A stretch of 45,555 bases of DNA from Oscillospiraceae bacterium (lineage in GTDB: Bacteria; Bacillota; Clostridia; Oscillospirales; Oscillospiraceae): contig JAZPZZ010000209.1 in the NCBI GenBank assembly GCA_045544935.1, positions 1 to 45,555 on the forward strand. The letters run 5' to 3'. A model generated the notes under the pieces. It did not search any database and was not told the origin of the DNA. It saw nothing but the letters and a program-made list of their open reading frames with translations. Made by a program: the position numbers and the translations under genes. Positions 5,411-11,939 of this stretch are shown here, one piece after another. How positions within the stretch are numbered: position 1 is the first letter of the stretch; each line of letters begins with the position of its first letter.

Positions 5411-6439
5411 TCATTCATATCGGAACGGCTGAATGCCCGCGGCGTCGTCATAGTAAAGCATCTTTTGCTCCTCATCGAGGGAGACAAATTCCTTCCAGTG
5501 CAGGCAGGCATACTTTTCGCCCGCTGCGGGCAGGGACGTCTCCGTGCAGCTCAGCCAGTATCCCGGAACCATCGCCGCGGTCAGATCATCCATGACCATG
5601 CCCTGCTCGATTCGTTCCTCTTCGGTGTCCAGAAAATACGTCAGGTTCAGCGGTTCTTGCGGCCCGTGGAGGGCAAACGTCGGGTCGGTATGATAGCCCT
5701 CGCCGTCCACAATCATGTAGGTCCAGGCATGATCCACCCCGTCAAAACACCCGATGGCCAGCGCATCCACCCCGACCTGCTGCAAAAGATAGGCATAGAC
5801 GGAGCTGAGGTGCTCGCAAATGCCCTGCTTGTTCCTCAGAGCCGTATAGGTAAAGCCCTCTCCGTCGATCGTGATGTCGCCGTAGGTGAAATTCGCTGCC
5901 ATGTAGGCATAGAGCTTGAGACTTTTTTCAAACTCCGTGTCGTCCGGCTCCAGAACGCTGTTGAGAAGCGCTTCGATCAGCGTCTCAAATTCTGCCTGTC
6001 TGGCGACGAATTCCTCCGGCGGGATGTTGTAATAAATCCTTCCGACCCCATTTTCGAACGGCGCGGTTCCGTCATTGCTCTTTCCGGTCACCGCCATGCA
6101 GGCGGCGGGAAACATGTGCGCAAGCGTGACTTCGTCCATGCACCAGTCATAGATCTCCTGACTCGCGCATGCAAACGTGTCCCGGCCTTCCCGGAGCGCA
6201 TCGCACAGATGATAAAGAGAATCCCACCACGCCTGCGGATAGTATTTCGAGAGCAGCGGAGAATACAAATGCGCCTTGAACACATACGGCTCCACCGATT
6301 CCGGAGCAGGAGCAGCAGGCTCCGCGCTGACCGCACCTGCATCGGAGGGCATGACATCCGGCCTTGCCGCGCTCCCGCAGGCAGACCCCAGAAGAACCAT
6401 GCTCAGCAGCAATATGGAAATCAAACGATTTGTCTTCAT
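5411..6439 (-). CDS. Transglutaminase-like cysteine peptidase-fold lipoprotein
   Basis: Signal peptide with Cys (LLGSAC). Cys-His-Asp core pattern GICEHLSSVYAYLL ... DHAWTYMIV ... HTDPT. Confidence 0.7.
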   Translation of the reverse strand: MKTNRLISILLLSMVLLGSACGSAARPDVMPSDAGAVSAEPAAPAPESVEPYVFKAHLYSPLLSKYYPQAWWDSLYHLCDALREGRDTFACASQEIYDWCMDEVTLAHMFPAACMAVTGKSNDGTAPFENGVGRIYYNIPPEEFVARQAEFETLIEALLNSVLEPDDTEFEKSLKLYAYMAANFTYGDITIDGEGFTYTALRNKQGICEHLSSVYAYLLQQVGVDALAIGCFDGVDHAWTYMIVDGEGYHTDPTFALHGPQEPLNLTYFLDTEEERIEQGMVMDDLTAAMVPGYWLSCTETSLPAAGEKYACLHWKEFVSLDEEQKMLYYDDAAGIQPFRYE

Positions 6440-6473: not shown

Positions 6474-6506
6474 AAAAAGGGACTGCCGCTGTACGCAACA
6501 GTCCCG
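6474..6506 (-). terminator. Terminator ending the S8 peptidase operon
   Basis: Minus strand: gggactg...cagtccc stem followed by TTTTT. Confidence 0.55.
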
Positions 6507-6524
6507 TTTCGGTTTTTCGGATGA

Positions 6525-7727
6525 TCAGAACGTCAGATTCGGAGACCAGCCCTTGAAGATGCTGCGGATGATGTTCTGGAAGAGCTCACGCAGCCAGCTG
6601 AAGTTGAACAGCTGAGACCAAATGGTCTGGTTGAAGTTCGGATCGGGTGTGGGAGCAGGACTGTCCGGCATCTCGGGGGCAGTGGTGCCGAAATACTCGG
6701 CAGCCGCTTTGATTGCCGCCGGCGCCTGGATCAGGCCCCAGCCAAACTCCGTGTCGTAGCCCGCATCGCCGAGATCGTAGCTGGACGCCTGCAGGATGGC
6801 CTTGAAGTCATCGGTGTTCATCTCGGGGTGCGCCTGCTTGAGCAGCGCGGCAAGGCCGGTCACGAAGGGCGCGGAGAAGCTCGTACCGCTGGAGCTGTAT
6901 ACGGAGCCGCGCGCGCCGATGCTGTAAACCTCATCGCCCGGCGCCGTGACGAAAATGCTGCTGTTCTGGTGCGAGAACTGGCTGCGCTCCAGACCCTTGT
7001 TGATGCTGCCGACGCCGATGGTCTCCGGGAGCGCGCCGGGGTAGTGCAGCTGCGTGTTGCCGTCGTTGCCGGTGGAGCAGACGATAATGACGCCCTTGCT
7101 CACGGCATACTGGACGGCCTCGCGCATACCCGTGGAGAGCCGGATGGAGCCGGAGCTGTAGTTGATCACGTCGCACTGGAATTCATCCACCGCAGCATAG
7201 ATTGCCTGCGCGCCCACGCCGTCGGGCGTGGTGTTGCCGTCGGAGGTTTTGATCGGGATGATCGTCACCTTGGGGGCAATGCCTGCAATGCCGACGCCGT
7301 TGTCCTTCGCCGCGCCGATGATGCCGGCGATGAAGGTGCCGTGGCCGCTGGAGTCCTCGGTAGAAGCGCCCTCGGTGAGCATGTGCTTTCCGGCCAGCAG
7401 ACGATTGGCTTCAAATTCGCCTGTGTTCGTGTAGATACCGCCGTCGATGACCGCGACGCGGACGCCGTCACCGGTCAGACCGCTCTGCCAGGCGGCTTCC
7501 ATGCCGATCATCTTCATGCCCCACTGGCGAGAGGAGTAGGGGTCGTTGGACATACCGGCTGCCAGCACCCGTGCGCCGTCATTGTCCGGAATGTCAGCGG
7601 TTTTAAACTGATAATCAATGGGCAGTTCCTCCGCATTCTCCGCCAGCACGGAAATGCCGAACAGCGGCATGAGCAGGCACAGGATCATCAGCAGCGTCAG
7701 GCTCTTGCGAAAGGTGTTTTTCATCAT
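6525..7727 (-). CDS. Secreted S8 (subtilisin-like) serine peptidase, paralogue 1, with conserved C-terminal tail
   Basis: Signal peptide. D (VAVIDGG), H (GHGTFIAGIIGA), S (GTSFSAPFVTGLAALL) triad. Tail WSQLFNFSWLRELFQNIIRSIFKGWSPNLTF. Confidence 0.9.
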   Translation of the reverse strand: MMKNTFRKSLTLLMILCLLMPLFGISVLAENAEELPIDYQFKTADIPDNDGARVLAAGMSNDPYSSRQWGMKMIGMEAAWQSGLTGDGVRVAVIDGGIYTNTGEFEANRLLAGKHMLTEGASTEDSSGHGTFIAGIIGAAKDNGVGIAGIAPKVTIIPIKTSDGNTTPDGVGAQAIYAAVDEFQCDVINYSSGSIRLSTGMREAVQYAVSKGVIIVCSTGNDGNTQLHYPGALPETIGVGSINKGLERSQFSHQNSSIFVTAPGDEVYSIGARGSVYSSSGTSFSAPFVTGLAALLKQAHPEMNTDDFKAILQASSYDLGDAGYDTEFGWGLIQAPAAIKAAAEYFGTTAPEMPDSPAPTPDPNFNQTIWSQLFNFSWLRELFQNIIRSIFKGWSPNLTF

Positions 7728-7754
7728 GGTTTCTCCTTCGGGATCAGAAATTGT

Positions 7755-8915
7755 TTAGAAGGTCAGATTTGCCGTCCAGCCCTTGAAGAGATTGCGGATG
7801 ATGTTCTGGAAGAGGTCGCGCAGCCAATTGAAGCTGAAGAAGTCACTCCAGGAGCTGCCCGGATTGTCCGGCTGGGACATATCGGGCGCCTCATCGCCGA
7901 AGTACTCGGCGGCGGCGCGGATGGCGTCGGGCGCCTGAACGAGACCCCAGCCATAGTAGATATCACGCCCCTTGGTGCTCAGATCCTTGCAGGAGTTCTT
8001 CAGGATTTCCCGGAAGTCGTCCGGGGTCATCTGCGGCCAGGCCTCCTTCAGCAGCGCCGCGACGCCGGCGACAACCGGCGCGGCAAAGCTGGTGCCGCTG
8101 CTGAGCGTGACGGTGCCGGGCAGTCTGCCGAGACTGTAAACGCCGACGCCAGGGGCGGCGACAAACACGCGCTCATTCCGGTTGGAGGTCGCGCTGATCA
8201 CCAGGTCCTTGTCCACGGAGGAGACGGAGATGACACCGTCATAAGAGGCGGGATAGAGCAGCTCCTTGTTCCCGGAGTTGCCTGCGGCAGCGATGACGAT
8301 GACGCCCTCATCCAGCGCGTGCTGAATGGCAGCCTGCACCTCCGGCACAATCTCCGGATCGCCGGCGCTGATGTTGAGGATGTCGCAGTGGCATTCGTCT
8401 ACCGCGGCGTAAATGCCGGCGGCCTGCGCGGCAAAGTCGGTTTCGGAAGAGGCGTAGCTCTTGATCGGCGCGATCGTGACGCCGGGGGCAATGCCTGCGA
8501 CGCCGACGAGGTTGTCCTTCGTCGCGCCGATGATGCCGGCGATGAAGGTGCCGTGGCCGATCGTGTCGGTTACGCCGGTGCCGCCGACGCAGTTTTTACC
8601 GGGGAGAATGCGGTCCTTGTCGATGTCCATCGTGGAGCCGGACAGGCCGGAGTCCACGATCGCGACGACCACGCCCTTGCCGGTGAGACCGGAGCGCCAT
8701 GCCTCCTCCATCCCAATGGTCTTCAGATTCCACTGCAGAGCGGAAAAGGGATCGTTGGAGATGCCCTTCAGGCTGCCGGAGACGCTGCTCTCCTTGACCT
8801 CGGTAAACTGATAGTCGCCGGGCGTGTCAGCCGCGAACACCGAGAGGCCGAACAGCGGCACAAGCAGACACAGAACCATCAGCAGGGTGAGACCCTTGCG
8901 GAAAATGTTGTTCAT
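7755..8915 (-). CDS. Secreted S8 serine peptidase, paralogue 2, with conserved C-terminal tail
   Basis: Same triad motifs (VAIVDSG, GHGTFIAGIIGA, GTSFAAPVVAGVAALL). Tail WSDFFSFNWLRDLFQNIIRNLFKGWTANLTF. 27-nt gap to the next gene. Confidence 0.9.
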   Translation of the reverse strand: MNNIFRKGLTLLMVLCLLVPLFGLSVFAADTPGDYQFTEVKESSVSGSLKGISNDPFSALQWNLKTIGMEEAWRSGLTGKGVVVAIVDSGLSGSTMDIDKDRILPGKNCVGGTGVTDTIGHGTFIAGIIGATKDNLVGVAGIAPGVTIAPIKSYASSETDFAAQAAGIYAAVDECHCDILNISAGDPEIVPEVQAAIQHALDEGVIVIAAAGNSGNKELLYPASYDGVISVSSVDKDLVISATSNRNERVFVAAPGVGVYSLGRLPGTVTLSSGTSFAAPVVAGVAALLKEAWPQMTPDDFREILKNSCKDLSTKGRDIYYGWGLVQAPDAIRAAAEYFGDEAPDMSQPDNPGSSWSDFFSFNWLRDLFQNIIRNLFKGWTANLTF

Positions 8916-8944
8916 CTAGTTCCTCCTTGCAGTCGGGGGGCTGT

Positions 8945-10045
8945 TCAGAAGCTCAGGTTCGGGGACCAGCCCTTGAAGATGCTGCGGATGATGCTCTGGA
9001 ACAGGTTGCGGATCCAGCTGAAATCAAAGATGTTCCAGCCGGTGCCGGGATTGTCGGGCTGATCGGGCTCGGTGGGAGCGCTCGGGTCGTTGAGCTCATA
9101 GCCCCACTTCTCGGCGGCGTATCTGAGGGCCGCGGGAACCTGAATCAGGCCGTTGCCGGCATAATCCTGTCCGGCAAGCTCACGGCTGGTGGCAATCAGA
9201 ATCTCCTTGAATTCCGCGAGGGTCATGTCGGGGTTCATCTGTTTGAGCAGCGCGGCGAGACCGGCCACATAGGGCGTGGAGAAGCTGGTGCCGTCCATCG
9301 TGGAGACGATGCCCGGCAGGAGGCTGAGGCTCGCGACCTTCTCGGCAGGCGCCACAACGAACACGCTGTCGTTCTTGTTGGAAAACACGCTGACGTTCAG
9401 ATTCTGATCCACGCCGCCGACGCCGATGACGGAGTCATAGGCAGCGGGATAGTTGTACTGGGCAGGCGTACTGCTGTCGCCCTCGTTGCCGACGGAAGCG
9501 ACCACGATCACACCGGCGGCGGCAGCGGCGTCGACGGCGGCCTTGAGATTCGCCTTCCGGTCGCTGGGCGTGCCCATGCTCATGTTGATGACCTGGCAGC
9601 CGGCCTCCACGCAGTCATAGACCGCCTGCGCCATGTCGCTGAGGGCCTTGACAATGTAGAAATCGCACTCGGGGGCAACGCCGGCGATGCCGACGCGGTT
9701 GTCCTTCGCCGCGCCGATGATGCCGGCGACGAAGGTGCCGTGACCTTCGATGTCAGTCGCAGAGTCGCCGATGGAGCCGGTGTAGTTGGGTCCGGCTTCC
9801 ACGCGGCTTCTGGCAATGTCGCCCGTGGCGGTGGAAAGACCGCTGTCGATGATGCCGACCTTCACGTCCTTGCCGGTGGGTCCCATGCCCCAGGCCTCGT
9901 TCATGCCGACAGCCTTCATGCCCCACTGCTTGGTGGAGCCGGGGTCGTTGGTCATTTTGTCCACTGCCAGCGCGGAGAGCCCGAACAGCGGAACGAGCAT
10001 GCACAGAGCCAGCAGCATGGCAAGCCATTTTCTTGTCTGTTTCAT
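8945..10045 (-). CDS. Secreted S8 serine peptidase, paralogue 3, with conserved C-terminal tail
   Basis: Start chosen at ATG 10045 (MKQTRKWLAMLLALCMLVPLFGLSALA) behind AGGAGGA. Triad motifs present. Tail WNIFDFSWIRNLFQSIIRSIFKGWSPNLSF. Confidence 0.85.
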   Translation of the reverse strand: MKQTRKWLAMLLALCMLVPLFGLSALAVDKMTNDPGSTKQWGMKAVGMNEAWGMGPTGKDVKVGIIDSGLSTATGDIARSRVEAGPNYTGSIGDSATDIEGHGTFVAGIIGAAKDNRVGIAGVAPECDFYIVKALSDMAQAVYDCVEAGCQVINMSMGTPSDRKANLKAAVDAAAAAGVIVVASVGNEGDSSTPAQYNYPAAYDSVIGVGGVDQNLNVSVFSNKNDSVFVVAPAEKVASLSLLPGIVSTMDGTSFSTPYVAGLAALLKQMNPDMTLAEFKEILIATSRELAGQDYAGNGLIQVPAALRYAAEKWGYELNDPSAPTEPDQPDNPGTGWNIFDFSWIRNLFQSIIRSIFKGWSPNLSF

Positions 10046-10179
10046 ATGCTTCCTCCTCTTTAAAATATAAAAGTCAGTCTTCTGTCTGCTTTGATGGACA
10101 TTATAGCATAAATCTGTCGATATGGAACATTCTGATTTGTAAAAATTTGCTGTTTGAATTTGTGGAAACAGCCGAACGG

Positions 10180-10872
10180 TCAGCGCTCTGTTCCGATGGT
10201 GTAGAGATTCAGAAAGGTCTGCGCGCACTCGGCGCGGCTGAGCGAGGCCTGCGGGCGGAAGGTGCCGGCGGAGTCGCCGTTCATGATGCCGGTGATCTTG
10301 CAGATCATCACATTGACAGCTGCCCAGGAGCTGATGGAGGACGCGTCCCGGAACTCATCCTTGAGCAGCATCGCGGCCGTTTTGGCGTCCAGCCGCTGGA
10401 TCATCTTCGCGGAGGCGTCGTCCAGCTTTGCCTGGCTCAGCAGGAAGCGAACAATCATGGTGGCCATCTGCTCGCGGGTAATGGCCTTGTTTGGGGAGAA
10501 GACGTTCGCGCTGCCGTCGCCGGTCGTCACGCCGTTCTTCACACCCCAGACCACCGCGTCGCGATACCAGCAGCCGGCGTCGTTCGGCACGTCGCTGAAG
10601 GGGTTGCTCTGACCCTTCACGCTTGGCTGATCTGCCAGGCGGTAGAGCACCGTGATGACCATGGCGCGCGTGACGGTGCCGTCGGGATCGAAGCGATTGT
10701 CGCCGACGCCGTTCATCAGTCCGCTGGCCTTGACAAAGTCCACTGCCTCGGCGTACCACGCGGAGCGGGAGACGTCCGAAAAGCCGCTTGCGGGGAAGCT
10801 CGCCGCGAAGGCGGATGCGCTGAGCGCAAAGACCAGGCACAGCGCCAGCAGCAGGGAAACCATCTTTTTCAT
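10180..10872 (-). CDS. SLH-domain-only surface protein (signal peptide + three S-layer homology repeats)
   Basis: FSDVSRSAWYAEAVDFV, FSDVPNDAGCWYRDAVVWGV and a third SLH-like repeat. RBS GGAGG upstream of ATG. Confidence 0.85.
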   Translation of the reverse strand: MKKMVSLLLALCLVFALSASAFAASFPASGFSDVSRSAWYAEAVDFVKASGLMNGVGDNRFDPDGTVTRAMVITVLYRLADQPSVKGQSNPFSDVPNDAGCWYRDAVVWGVKNGVTTGDGSANVFSPNKAITREQMATMIVRFLLSQAKLDDASAKMIQRLDAKTAAMLLKDEFRDASSISSWAAVNVMICKITGIMNGDSAGTFRPQASLSRAECAQTFLNLYTIGTER

Positions 10873-11030
10873 GTGAAAACCTCCAAACAGAATGCAGAAA
10901 TGCGCTTGTTGTTTTGACGATTTGATTATAACATAGTTCCCAGAATCTGCAAGTGCAAAGCCCTTCTGGATTGACGAAATCTGCCTATCTGCGGTATACT
11001 TGAAACAACAACCCGAAAGGAGTGATTGAC

Positions 11031-11939
11031 ATGAAAAGAATCCTGAGTCTGATGCTCGTGCTGGTCATGATCCTCACGCTGGGCGCCTGCGGAAAGAAAG
11101 CCGCGGAGCCTGCCGGGTCTGAGGCTGAAGATCTGGTCACGATCATGGTCAATATAAAGGGAGTGGAAGGCAATGTCGCGATTTCAGATGACGGCACAGA
11201 GCCGGTGCTCGATCCGGAGTTTCCCGCGCAGTCCGCTTATATGAATGTGGAAAAGGGCACGGTCGTCAAAATCCTCGCGGAGCCGGAGGAGGGATATCAC
11301 TTCTTCAAGTGGACCGTCGACGGGAAAGAGTATTCGACCGAGCCGCTGATCTCCGTCACGGCGGAGGAGGACACGGAGTTTATCGCGGAGTTTCTGCCCG
11401 AGGGCAAGGACGGAAAACCCGTGGATCTCGATGCGGTCAAGACCCTCGGCGATCTGCTTGGGCTGCCTGAGGTCGGAACCAGCCTGACCGGCACGACCTA
11501 CGTCTATGCGTTTGAGCAGGACGGCAGCACCTGGCGTGCCATCTGCGACGTCCCCGAGGAAACTGCGCAGGCCATCTTTGATCTGGACTTCGACGATCCC
11601 GATTATGACAAGAAGCTGAATGCGCTGATTGCGCCGCTCCCCGTCAAGGTCATTGAGAATCTCACCGAGAACATCCCCTCGCAGAAGGAGGCCGATCAGT
11701 ATCTCGGCAAAACCGGCCAGGAGCTGATCGACGACGGCTGGACGGTGCACTACTACAATCTGGATGAGCTGCAGTTCAAAATGACCCATGGCATCTATTC
11801 TTACGACATCACCTTTGAAGGAAAGATCAAGGATCCCGACAGCTTCAACGAGGACACGGATATGGGCGGTCTGACGGTAAAAGCCATCACCTGCAGCGGC
11901 GTCGGCGACGCCACCTATGTGGAGATGCCGGAGGAATAA
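11031..11939 (+). CDS. Lipoprotein, function unknown (contains an InlB-B-repeat-like EEGYHFFKWTVDG segment)
   Basis: ATG 11031 behind AAAGGAG. Lipobox LTLGAC. Coding-like codon bias. Confidence 0.7.
   Translation: MKRILSLMLVLVMILTLGACGKKAAEPAGSEAEDLVTIMVNIKGVEGNVAISDDGTEPVLDPEFPAQSAYMNVEKGTVVKILAEPEEGYHFFKWTVDGKEYSTEPLISVTAEEDTEFIAEFLPEGKDGKPVDLDAVKTLGDLLGLPEVGTSLTGTTYVYAFEQDGSTWRAICDVPEETAQAIFDLDFDDPDYDKKLNALIAPLPVKVIENLTENIPSQKEADQYLGKTGQELIDDGWTVHYYNLDELQFKMTHGIYSYDITFEGKIKDPDSFNEDTDMGGLTVKAITCSGVGDATYVEMPEE

Follow-up and report, generated by a model that had tools for sequence, protein, structure and literature searches.

Three tandem S8 peptidases encoded in a 45,555-nucleotide contig of a ruminant-gut Oscillospiraceae bacterium (JAZPZZ010000209.1, here the window) share a C-terminal tail of about 30 residues, and alignment with their relatives places this tail at the position of the covalent SLH wall anchor, a correspondence that is newly recognised here. 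Judged from these sequences, the most likely role of the tail is that of a new, small anchoring or retention device that keeps the proteases at the cell surface.

The tailed S8 peptidase cluster

The original prediction of three consecutive S8 genes with gaps of 27–29 nt was confirmed, the co-oriented reading frames A, B and C (Table 1) being separated by 29 nt (A/B) and 27 nt (B/C), and the predicted SLH-only protein was recovered directly upstream as a reading frame with an SLH match. Each peptidase consists of a signal peptide, an S8 domain, a Pro/Asp-rich linker and the C-terminal tail, and the linkers of A and B equivalent to that of C are ∼15–21 residues long. All three genes are intact, under purifying selection and found in ruminant-gut RNA libraries. 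One RNA-library contig covers A and B (7757–10057), another bridges the junction between the SLH-only gene and A (9833–10221), and the X27 RNA-library contig on C extends from 6504 to 7691. A search for terminators between the SLH-only gene and A found none.

Table 1. Features of the SLH-only/S8 peptidase cluster (positions in the window)
Feature	Position	Strand	Remarks
SLH-only gene	10180..10872	minus	230 aa; first gene of cluster; Pfam SLH E 2.3e-34, 3 stretches
S8 peptidase A	8945..10045	minus	366 aa; Peptidase_S8 E 3.2e-46
S8 peptidase B	7755..8915	minus	386 aa; Peptidase_S8 E 2.5e-45
S8 peptidase C	6525..7727	minus	400 aa; Peptidase_S8 E 2.8e-46
Signal peptide of A	about 9965-10045	minus	
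Signal peptide of B	about 8832-8915	minus	
Signal peptide of C	7641..7727	minus	MMKNTFRKSLTLLMILCLLMPLFGISVLA; sequence, by eye
Pro/Asp-rich linker of C	6621..6686	minus	about TTAPEMPDSPAPTPDPNFNQTI; between catalytic domain and tail
Tail of A	8948..9037	minus	WNIFDFSWIRNLFQSIIRSIFKGWSPNLSF
Tail of B	7758..7850	minus	WSDFFSFNWLRDLFQNIIRNLFKGWTANLTF
Tail of C	6528..6620	minus	WSQLFNFSWLRELFQNIIRSIFKGWSPNLTF
Intrinsic terminator-like hairpin 3' of gene C	6479..6505	minus	11-bp stem, then T run; closes cluster

The assignment to S8 peptidases without a prodomain was upheld: A, B and C match Peptidase_S8 (PF00082) with 155–159 bits against a cut-off of 21.8 (E about 1e-45), and no I9 prodomain is present. 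In a profile scan at E<=0.1, Peptidase_S8 was the sole match, with no SLH in the same polypeptide. Residues D95, H129, N221 and S283 (C numbering; triad and oxyanion Asn) are invariant in 127 family sequences, the AlphaFold2 model of C has a subtilisin fold (pTM 0.77), and the best Foldseek matches to this model are Bacillus subtilisins (E about 1e-22, target-normalised TM 0.87). The catalytic domains have diverged by about half, as had been estimated, with a pairwise identity of about 50% (body 48–50%). A has the shortest N-terminal extension of the three, together with a 7-aa loop deletion common to domain 1 of the fused homologues described below.

The best NCBIfam model for A, B and C was that of the mycosins (TIGR03921; 183.5, 201.8 and 206.6 bits). 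These type VII secretion-associated enzymes, described in PMC5600315 as membrane-anchored S8 proteases, resemble A, B and C in their signal peptide, prodomain-less S8 domain, Pro-rich linker and C-terminal anchoring element. Identity as mycosins was rejected, with all scores under the curated equivalog cut-off of 278.75 and no C-terminal TM helix in the tails. A search of the 78%-complete source genome for type VII secretion genes revealed no WXG100 protein, and the only match to the EssC model reached 124.7 bits against a cut-off of 778.4.

The tail and the SLH anchor of relatives

The motif W..F.F.W(L/I)R.LFQ.IIR..FKGW..NL.F ends all three proteins at the positions originally given for it. 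It had been called almost invariant, which proved too strong: the tails are more alike than the bodies (pairwise identity 60–77% versus 48–50%), but only 18 of 35 columns are identical.

Outside the genus, the closest S8 relatives are SP-S8-SLHx3 proteins of 548–604 aa (41–47% identity). Sister species encode tail-less fusions, SP-(S8)3-SLHx3 (1196 and 1198 aa) and SP-(S8)2-SLHx3 (883 aa), and domains 1, 2 and 3 of these fusions have rare features in common with A, B and C. When the fused proteins were aligned with A/B/C, tail plus signal peptide formed an exact gap at each domain junction, and SLH stood in place of the tail of C. Since the tail lies at the position of the SLH triple in the closest relatives and is missing from the fused (S8)2-3-SLH proteins, it is most likely an anchoring or retention device. 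SLH-anchored subtilases of Oscillospiraceae and other Clostridia share with A, B and C the S8 lineage, the signal-peptide style and the attachment point after the catalytic domain; in contrast, A, B and C lack SLH and carry the 30-residue tail instead, and SLH is a separate 230-aa protein.

Within one genus, a single protease lineage appears with three solutions, namely a single S8 domain on SLH, two or three fused S8 domains on one SLH module, and three or four separate tailed S8 proteins, which together make a compact natural experiment in anchor swapping. Whether the products released by its own proteases stay with a gut bacterium depends on surface retention.

Distribution and variation of the tail

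The tail is confined to a single sub-clade, 8 of 22 species, of one ruminant-gut genus and to related metagenome contigs, a narrow range that limits its general biological reach. It is retained in all ∼125 full-length family members. It is carried by three or four proteins per genome, in the 78%-complete source genome by the three S8 genes only, and a search of 1.84 billion representatives showed it on no further protein family, one gapped scaffold excepted. The tails matched no Pfam or NCBIfam model even at E<=10, in agreement with the original statement that they do not resemble LPXTG, SLH, PEP-CTERM, GlyGly-CTERM or CWB motifs. Neither finding named beforehand as refuting was made, in that the tail corresponds to no described domain and the orthologues carry it.

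The general idea of an anchor, docking peptide or sorting signal is strongly supported by the SLH position, although a sorting signal fares poorly. The latter would be a new C-terminal signal read by a dedicated processing enzyme, as in sortase or exosortase systems, and a conserved motif at the very end of Sec substrates without a match to known signal models is what it would predict. With only three or four tailed proteins per genome, and no conserved processing-enzyme gene seen in the neighbourhood across the tailed S8 loci, a dedicated signal is very improbable, and the tail, unlike known signals, has no hydrophobic TM stretch with a basic cluster behind it. LPXTG, PEP-CTERM, GlyGly-CTERM, PGF-CTERM and the other signals with NCBIfam or Pfam models were rejected as well, the tails matching none of these models and having no TM-grade stretch. 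In a whole-protein scan of A, the only sorting model that matched was LAETG NF041528 (12.7 bits against a cut-off of 30), at residues 252–267 inside the catalytic domain.

Compared across orthologues, the tail evolves no more slowly than the catalytic domain. Six polar residues, R380, Q384, R388, K392, G393 and N397, are kept in at least 90% of 127 sequences. Divergent lineages have the tails WLIELFRIIIRSLFKG, LLWSILRFLFKGW and SIIARFVKGW, with an ending that is variable or absent, and across lineages the character of the tail is kept and its identity is not. The supposedly conserved terminal N-x-S/T was not substantiated: the variants NLAF, NLNF, SLTF and PGMSF occur, and one lineage ends after KG. 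In nearly all sequences the protein ends in Phe or Leu, preceded by a small residue.

Such an ending resembles the P1/P2 product end of subtilisins. It would suit a cleavable C-terminal extension, a temporary tether or an auto-inhibitory or maturation peptide, cut by the proteases themselves to free the active enzyme and possibly a membrane-active peptide; the exposed Pro-rich linker would be a plausible cut site, and the usual N-terminal I9 prodomain is missing. We consider this improbable, with the ending as variable as described, fused homologues that function without a tail, and the last seven residues of C modelled by AlphaFold2 at pLDDT <50, which gives no confidence to a tail docked in the active site.

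A candidate in-plane membrane anchor

The tails contain no TM segment, as had been predicted, the highest 19-residue Kyte-Doolittle mean being 0.33–0.77. The hydrophobic pattern i, i+1, i+4, i+5 was also verified: the hydrophobic moment has its maximum of 0.60–0.62 at 90 degrees, a period of 4.0, and is matched by at most 0.12% of shuffles. The description as a textbook amphipathic helix applies to an 18-residue core (muH at 100 degrees 0.64–0.66) but not to the whole 24–25 residues (0.34–0.38, not above shuffles), and with a period of 4.0 instead of 3.6 over this full length, one straight helix would have no single flat face. The core has a mean hydrophobicity of 0.01–0.15, and the best 11-residue window reaches a muH of 0.82–0.83. 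Each tail holds 8–9 aromatics in 30–31 residues and 4–5 charged residues (three Lys/Arg versus one or two Asp/Glu), with a Wimley-White interfacial sum of −5.7 to −6.5 kcal/mol. Strongly amphipathic and rich in Trp and Phe, the core is too polar for a membrane-spanning segment. In the AlphaFold2 model of C, the linker (347–368) has no regular secondary structure and declining confidence (block means 84 for 351–360 and 59 for 361–370), and the tail is split into helices 369–373 and 377–393, the latter at low confidence (pLDDT 54–65).

These properties fit a membrane anchor. The tails seem to be comparable to PBP5 in their aromatic and basic composition, and A, B and C resemble PBP5 as enzymes predicted to be Sec-exported that end in a short amphipathic, non-spanning helix. 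In E. coli, PBP5 passes through Sec, loses its signal peptide and is retained at the outer face of the inner membrane by an amphipathic helix formed by 18 C-terminal residues, which is too polar to cross the bilayer (PMC2909392). In terms of functional class, not sequence family, the tails have the PBP5-type features of an extreme C-terminal helix, a high hydrophobic moment and sub-TM hydrophobicity. PBP5 differs in being of another enzyme class, in the length of its helix (18 versus ∼27–31 residues in the tail) and in that a Pro-rich stalk precedes the tail; no sequence homology is claimed, and membrane binding is proposed here by analogy. On this analogy, we tentatively read the ∼30-residue tail as a cell-envelope retention module, a PBP5-like in-plane membrane anchor that may have replaced the covalent SLH anchor in the sub-clade, and put its chances at not quite even.

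As a membrane anchor, the tail would act as follows. A, B and C would be exported through Sec and their signal peptides removed; a flexible Pro/Asp-rich stalk, suggested by the sequence and the AlphaFold2 model, would tether the catalytic domain to the tail; and the Trp/Phe-rich, weakly cationic 18-residue helix would lie at the cytoplasmic membrane, in the interface of its outer leaflet, as in PBP5. Together, the three or four diverged paralogues would make up a surface-retained protease set, probably with different specificities and probably used to forage for protein or peptides in the rumen or gut, and the SLH-only protein would be co-regulated, the tail working without it. If the tail is indeed a self-sufficient anchor of ∼30 residues, whether to membrane or partner, it would offer a small portable tag for enzyme display on Gram-positive cells.

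The SLH-only protein as a possible partner

The membrane-anchor model leaves unexplained the conserved SLH-only gene under purifying selection at the head of the operon. In addition, the conserved polar residues of the tail exceed what a generic lipid-binding helix needs, which hints at a specific partner. The tails may be docking peptides that bind the SLH-only protein, singly or after bundling, so that three proteases would sit non-covalently on one wall anchor as a split (S8)3-SLH; we regard this as the main alternative to a membrane anchor, possible though less likely.

The SLH-only protein comprises a signal peptide and three SLH motifs, and its lack of a passenger domain combined with purifying selection (dN/dS 0.14–0.36) speaks for docking. 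Its orthologues (82–93% identity) lie directly upstream of A in seven genomes of the genus, and the order SLH-only/A/B/C is strict in seven of the eight tail-bearing species of the genus and in one metagenome lineage (L088), the orthologue being confined to genomes with the full operon. The uninterrupted SLH-only/A junction and the RNA-library contig over it point the same way, as do the fused homologues, in which the same S8 modules are joined covalently to SLH, and the polar residues, which suggest a specific interface. The wide hydrophobic arc that goes with a period of 4.0 would suit a helix buried over more than half its surface; on the other hand, this period and the aromatics at hydrophobic positions, as judged from the sequences, are not coiled-coil-like.

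The docking reading is weakened by two metagenomic lineages (L091/L087 and L085/L086) with tailed S8 arrays, of four genes in L091 and three in L085, that have no SLH-only gene in the locus. It is weakened further by a second SLH-only paralogue (56–60%), which adjoins a 5'-nucleotidase-like enzyme that already has its own SLH. The SLH-only protein shares only 35% identity with the SLH module of the fusions and belongs to a different SLH subfamily, and so is not a fission product of them. Furthermore, adjacency is weak evidence, because these genomes encode 20–60 SLH proteins each.

In a more specific form, which we hold to be unlikely, the tails would be connectors: three helices, or four in one lineage, would bundle and join the stand-alone SLH protein in a wall-anchored S8 hetero-complex, the non-covalent equivalent of (S8)3-SLH. 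A true docking peptide would constitute a new minimal assembly system, and true connectors an undescribed minimal, cohesin-dockerin-like one of ∼30 residues. Under docking only, the likeness to the cohesin-dockerin pairs of cellulosomes consists in a free enzyme, a small C-terminal module and a separately encoded SLH-anchored partner. Dockerins are Ca-binding, duplicated modules of about 70 residues. In contrast, the tail is a single ∼30-residue helix and the SLH-only protein has no extra receptor domain, and no dockerin or cohesin family was found in the five proteins scanned at E<=0.1 or in the tails at E<=10.

Tail DNA, gene conversion and signal peptides

Conservation of the tail at the DNA level had also been proposed. 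Identical tail residues do use the same codons more often than those of the body (75–84% versus 61–69%), but with n=15–20 there is no clear excess. Tail DNA identity is 84% between orthologues and 77% and 76% between paralogues of the same and of different genomes, respectively, so the sequences cluster by paralogue type. At synonymous sites, paralogous tails differ about as often as the bodies do. On these comparisons, the similarity of tail DNA is attributable to codon bias and amino-acid constraint, with gene conversion in local patches only.

Such patches were seen in the test for gene conversion that had been proposed: in one genome (G406), the A tail bears the segment REFFQNIIRNLF that is present in the B and C copies of that genome, and the rare-codon ending TTCTCGCTT (FSL) is found in the A tail of certain genomes but in the B tail of others. 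They would favour the view that the tail has no function of its own and that its likeness is a product of recent gene conversion among tandem paralogues. Grouping by paralogue type, body-level synonymous differences and retention throughout the family in 8 species leave this view largely refuted, and we give it hardly any credence.

The signal peptides, whose cleavage after an A-x-A-like motif was placed by eye without a predictor, had been described as unusually conserved. Their conservation does exceed that of the body, though only modestly (57–72% identity over 28 residues). Other exported proteins of the same organism have signal peptides of similar style, and that of the fused (S8)2-3-SLHx3 homologues is the style of A, B and C.

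Organization of the S8 Peptidase Cluster

The SLH-only secreted protein and S8 peptidases A, B and C are encoded by four co-oriented genes separated by 134, 29 and 27 nt; the interval from the SLH-only gene to A showed no terminator-like site. The original prediction of three consecutive, prodomain-less S8 genes with 27-29-nt gaps and catalytic domains differing at about half of their residues was borne out: all three products matched Peptidase_S8, the Pfam scan detected no I9 domain in A, B or C, and paralogue identity was about 50%. The Asp, His and Ser residues and the oxyanion Asn were invariant across 127 family members, and C was modelled as a subtilisin fold (AlphaFold2, pTM 0.77) with a target-normalized TM of 0.87 to Bacillus subtilisins (Foldseek). 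In each protein, a Pro/Asp-rich linker of 15-22 residues, modelled by AlphaFold2 without regular secondary structure in C, leads into the aromatic C-terminal element (the tail). A lipobox at the conserved signal-peptide Cys was rejected by eye, position -1 being Leu and an A-x-A site lying 11-12 residues downstream.

The top NCBIfam model for A, B and C was the T7SS mycosin, with 184-207 bits against a cut-off of 278.75, and a scan of the window's genome for T7SS found neither a WXG100 gene nor an EssC above cut-off. These proteins are therefore not mycosins, and their assignment to a T7SS was rejected.

Both flanks of the cluster carry lipoprotein genes. The transglutaminase-core lipoprotein lies downstream of the terminator, a synteny absent in related loci, where other genes, often SLH-bearing, come after gene C. 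The divergently transcribed 305-aa lipoprotein (lipobox LGAC, function unassigned) is kept beside the SLH-only gene in 5 related loci with 84-95% identity.

Features of the S8 peptidase cluster and of related loci
Feature	Location	Strand	Description
SLH-only secreted protein	window 10180-10872	minus	230 aa, three SLH motifs, Pfam E 2.3e-34
S8 peptidase A	window 8945-10045	minus	366 aa, Peptidase_S8 E about 1e-45
S8 peptidase B	window 7755-8915	minus	386 aa, Peptidase_S8 E about 1e-45
S8 peptidase C	window 6525-7727	minus	400 aa, Peptidase_S8 E about 1e-45
Terminator-like hairpin	window 6479-6505		closes cluster
Transglutaminase-core lipoprotein	window 5411-6439	minus	
305-aa lipoprotein	window 11022-11939	plus	
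SP-(S8)3-SLHx3	G407		1196 aa
SP-(S8)3-SLHx3	G409		1198 aa
SP-(S8)2-SLHx3	G404		883 aa
Fused S8-SLH loci of sister species	L057 3668-7258; L058 4277-7873; L059 4494-7145	minus; plus; plus	
Lone C-type tailed S8 gene	L005 4916-6095 (G404:C44)		
Four tailed S8 genes	L091 1150-6191 (also L087, L092)		between glycerate kinase and glutamine synthetase genes
Divergent three-gene S8 array	L085/L086 5884-9356		tails degenerate or truncated
Second SLH-only protein and 5'-nucleotidase-like protein	L069 3872-7170 (G401:C57)		236 aa and 816 aa
Window-genome equivalent of the L069 pair	G000:C169:1038-4328		
P0039	L067 312-587		91-aa ORF

The Tail in the Place of a Wall Anchor

Outside the genus but within the family, the nearest S8 relatives are proteins of 548-604 aa (41-47% identity) that carry three SLH motifs directly after the catalytic domain. 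Sister species encode fused homologues, in which a signal peptide in the same style as those of A, B and C is followed by two or three S8 domains and an SLH triple; the tail was absent from all three fused proteins (G407, G409 and G404). The segment that opens mature B and C (P.D.Q.) survives in the interdomain linkers of the fused proteins. Domain 1 shares a 7-residue loop deletion and an INMSMGTP block with A, and domain 3 shares VIIVCSTGNDG and FSH.N blocks with C; an ML tree that set A, B and C against fused domains 1-3 did not resolve the deep branches, so these pairings depend entirely on such rare common features.

The split and fused forms differ by a tail, stop codon, RBS and signal peptide at each junction and by tail versus SLH at the end, and the tail therefore stands in the slot that a covalent wall anchor holds in the relatives. 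It is also dispensable where the domains are covalently tied to an SLH anchor. Together, this position and this dispensability provide good evidence, drawn from comparison of sequences, that the tail acts as a retention or anchoring device.

The tandem S8 domains of the fused proteins are apparently active, and several proteases in one wall-anchored polyprotein are unusual in themselves. G404 carries both the two-domain fused form and a lone C-type tailed S8 gene; the latter is apparently frameshifted (two overlapping tblastn pieces) and lies behind two large SLH-bearing proteins, one lipase-like by eye.

Distribution of the Tail

The tails gave no match in Pfam or NCBIfam at E<=10, in agreement with the claim that they resemble no known motif; that the tail is a dedicated sorting signal seems very improbable. 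When 1.84 billion representative proteins were searched with a profile of the tail, as the original prediction had proposed, the matches were members of this S8 family, apart from three false ones of low complexity. A word-seeded search returned 38 clusters, every one S8 (358-400 aa), and the tail was present in all full-length proteins among the 120 relatives listed by a full-length search. No genes but these three bear it in the genome of the window, which is 78% complete, and that genome is the sole carrier in a sample of 400 from the family. Orthologues in the genus do possess it, in 8 of 22 species (three copies in six; one copy in two fragmented assemblies). The organisms concerned are Oscillospiraceae MAGs from rumen and goat gut; in addition, DNA of the genes was found in goat, sheep and bovine gut metagenomes, and RNA-library contigs cover them.

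One candidate carrier outside S8, P0039, was rejected. In this ORF a clostripain-like (Peptidase_C11) fragment runs into an A-type tail at the point where A should end. The 1.7-kb scaffold bearing it has an N gap within gene A, just upstream of the ORF, and identity of the C11 fragment to C11 genes of the genus reaches only 54-60%. The join is probably a mis-assembly, a real domain swap being the lesser possibility.

The genus itself falls into two groups. In nine species, all of them MAGs 76-92% complete, the S8 family is expanded, in split and/or fused form, and a C11 peptidase homologue is present; the thirteen others, mostly of high completeness, have only a distant S8 protein (about 30% identity). 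This division suggests a proteolytic sub-clade.

Conservation and Evolution of the Tail

A, B and C share the tail consensus W..F.F.W(L/I)R.LFQ.IIR..FKGW..NL.F. Only 18 of 35 aligned columns are identical among the three copies, and paralogue identity is 60-77% in the tail versus 48-50% in the body (the remainder of the protein); the tail is thus more conserved between paralogues than the protein average, though not almost invariant as had been described. Its predicted similarity at the DNA level is present but is largely explained by amino-acid constraint and codon bias; at paralogue-identical residues, the same codon is used in 75-84% of cases in the tail (n=15-20) versus 61-69% in the body.

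Pure gene conversion would also make the copies alike, and local patches of it were observed: the G406 A tail contains the REFFQNIIRNLF segment of that genome's own B and C copies, and the ending TTCTCGCTT (FSL) is common to the A tails of some genomes and the B tails of others. However, when the final 81 nt were compared across 17 tails of 7 genomes, they grouped by paralogue type (orthologues 84%; paralogues 77% within and 76% across genomes), so there is no general concerted evolution. Given this sorting and the codon comparison, conversion as the sole cause was rejected as scarcely credible.

Comparison of orthologues did not show the tail to be under tighter purifying selection than the body: dN was 0.03-0.30 in the tail and 0.02-0.21 in the body, usually equal or higher in the tail except in comparisons involving the divergent G406 copy of C. 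The tail is not frozen, but toggles within a limited residue set (S/N, I/L, D/E/N and a variable ending). Nor is the supposed terminal N-x-S/T sequon conserved, since variants include NLAF, NLNF, SLTF and PGMSF and one lineage stops at KG.

Possible Modes of Anchoring: Membrane Helix or Docking Peptide

As claimed, the tail lacks a TM segment, with no TM-grade window in any of the three copies. Its description as a textbook amphipathic helix holds for the 18-residue core (FSWLRELFQNIIRSIFKG and equivalents; moment 0.64-0.66, mean hydrophobicity 0.01-0.15; top 11-residue windows 0.82-0.83) but not for the whole 24-25 residues, whose moment at the alpha-helical angle is 0.34-0.38, no better than shuffles. 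Hydrophobic residues follow an HHPP pattern of period 4.0, and the moment peaks at 90 degrees (0.60-0.62; reached by <=0.12% of shuffles). In line with amphipathicity confined to the core, AlphaFold2 models the C tail as two separate helices, a short one (369-373) and one of 17 residues (377-393), at low confidence (pLDDT 54-65; <50 for the final 7 residues). Each tail has 8-9 aromatics in 30-31 residues, three basic versus one or two acidic residues, and a Wimley-White interfacial sum of -5.7 to -6.5 kcal/mol.

Our tentative preference is for an in-plane membrane anchor, a reading that may well prove wrong. In PBP5, an 18-residue C-terminal amphipathic helix keeps an exported enzyme at the outer face of the inner membrane (PMC2909392), which is a precedent for such an anchor; membrane association of the tail itself is a proposal. 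Mycosins, described as membrane-tethered S8 enzymes (PMC5600315), offer a precedent for tethering of this enzyme family.

Somewhat less probably, the tail might dock to the SLH-only protein and/or to other tails. In 7/7 genus genomes with the full operon, an SLH-only orthologue (82-93% identity) is the gene directly upstream of A; none was found in the remaining genomes of the genus, and L088, a more distant metagenome lineage, has such a gene upstream as well. The protein has no passenger domain, yet its dN/dS of 0.14-0.36 indicates purifying selection; one RNA-library contig spans the gap between its gene and A, although DNA carry-over is possible. Furthermore, six polar tail residues (R380, Q384, R388, K392, G393 and N397) are kept in at least 90% of sequences. 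However, the L091/L087 metagenome lineage has four tailed S8 genes (368, 396, 388 and 396 aa; a 307-nt terminator/promoter-like gap ahead of the fourth) at a different locus with no SLH-only gene, and in the L085 lineage three S8 genes, with more hydrophobic, degenerate tails (WLIELFRIIIRSLFKG-stop; LLWSILRFLFKGWIPGMSF), follow a 1231-aa non-SLH protein. The SLH-only protein also belongs to another SLH subfamily than the SLH module of the fused proteins, with which it shares only 35% identity, and genomes here encode 20-60 SLH proteins each. An interfacial membrane helix fits better because tail variation keeps aromatic, hydrophobic and basic character rather than identity, and because tails exist independently of an adjacent SLH-only gene. 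A cleavable extension appears unlikely.

The tail is real, clade-specific and undescribed, and sits in the anchor's place; its arrangement varies known anchoring solutions anew on a known enzyme family. The main value of the system lies in letting three natural arrangements be compared: a covalent SLH anchor, a multi-domain fusion, and split genes with tails.

The 1231-aa neighbour of the L085/L086 array is a secreted protein with faint beta-helix matches, and a phage-type integrase gene lies close by; this array may be a mobile or decaying copy. A second SLH-only protein, 56-60% identical to that of the window, is encoded directly upstream of the 5'-nucleotidase-like enzyme, which was judged metallophosphoesterase-type by eye and carries an SLH triple of its own, from the same subfamily, a further point against dedicated docking. 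Small SLH-only proteins next to surface enzymes may be a recurring arrangement in the genus.
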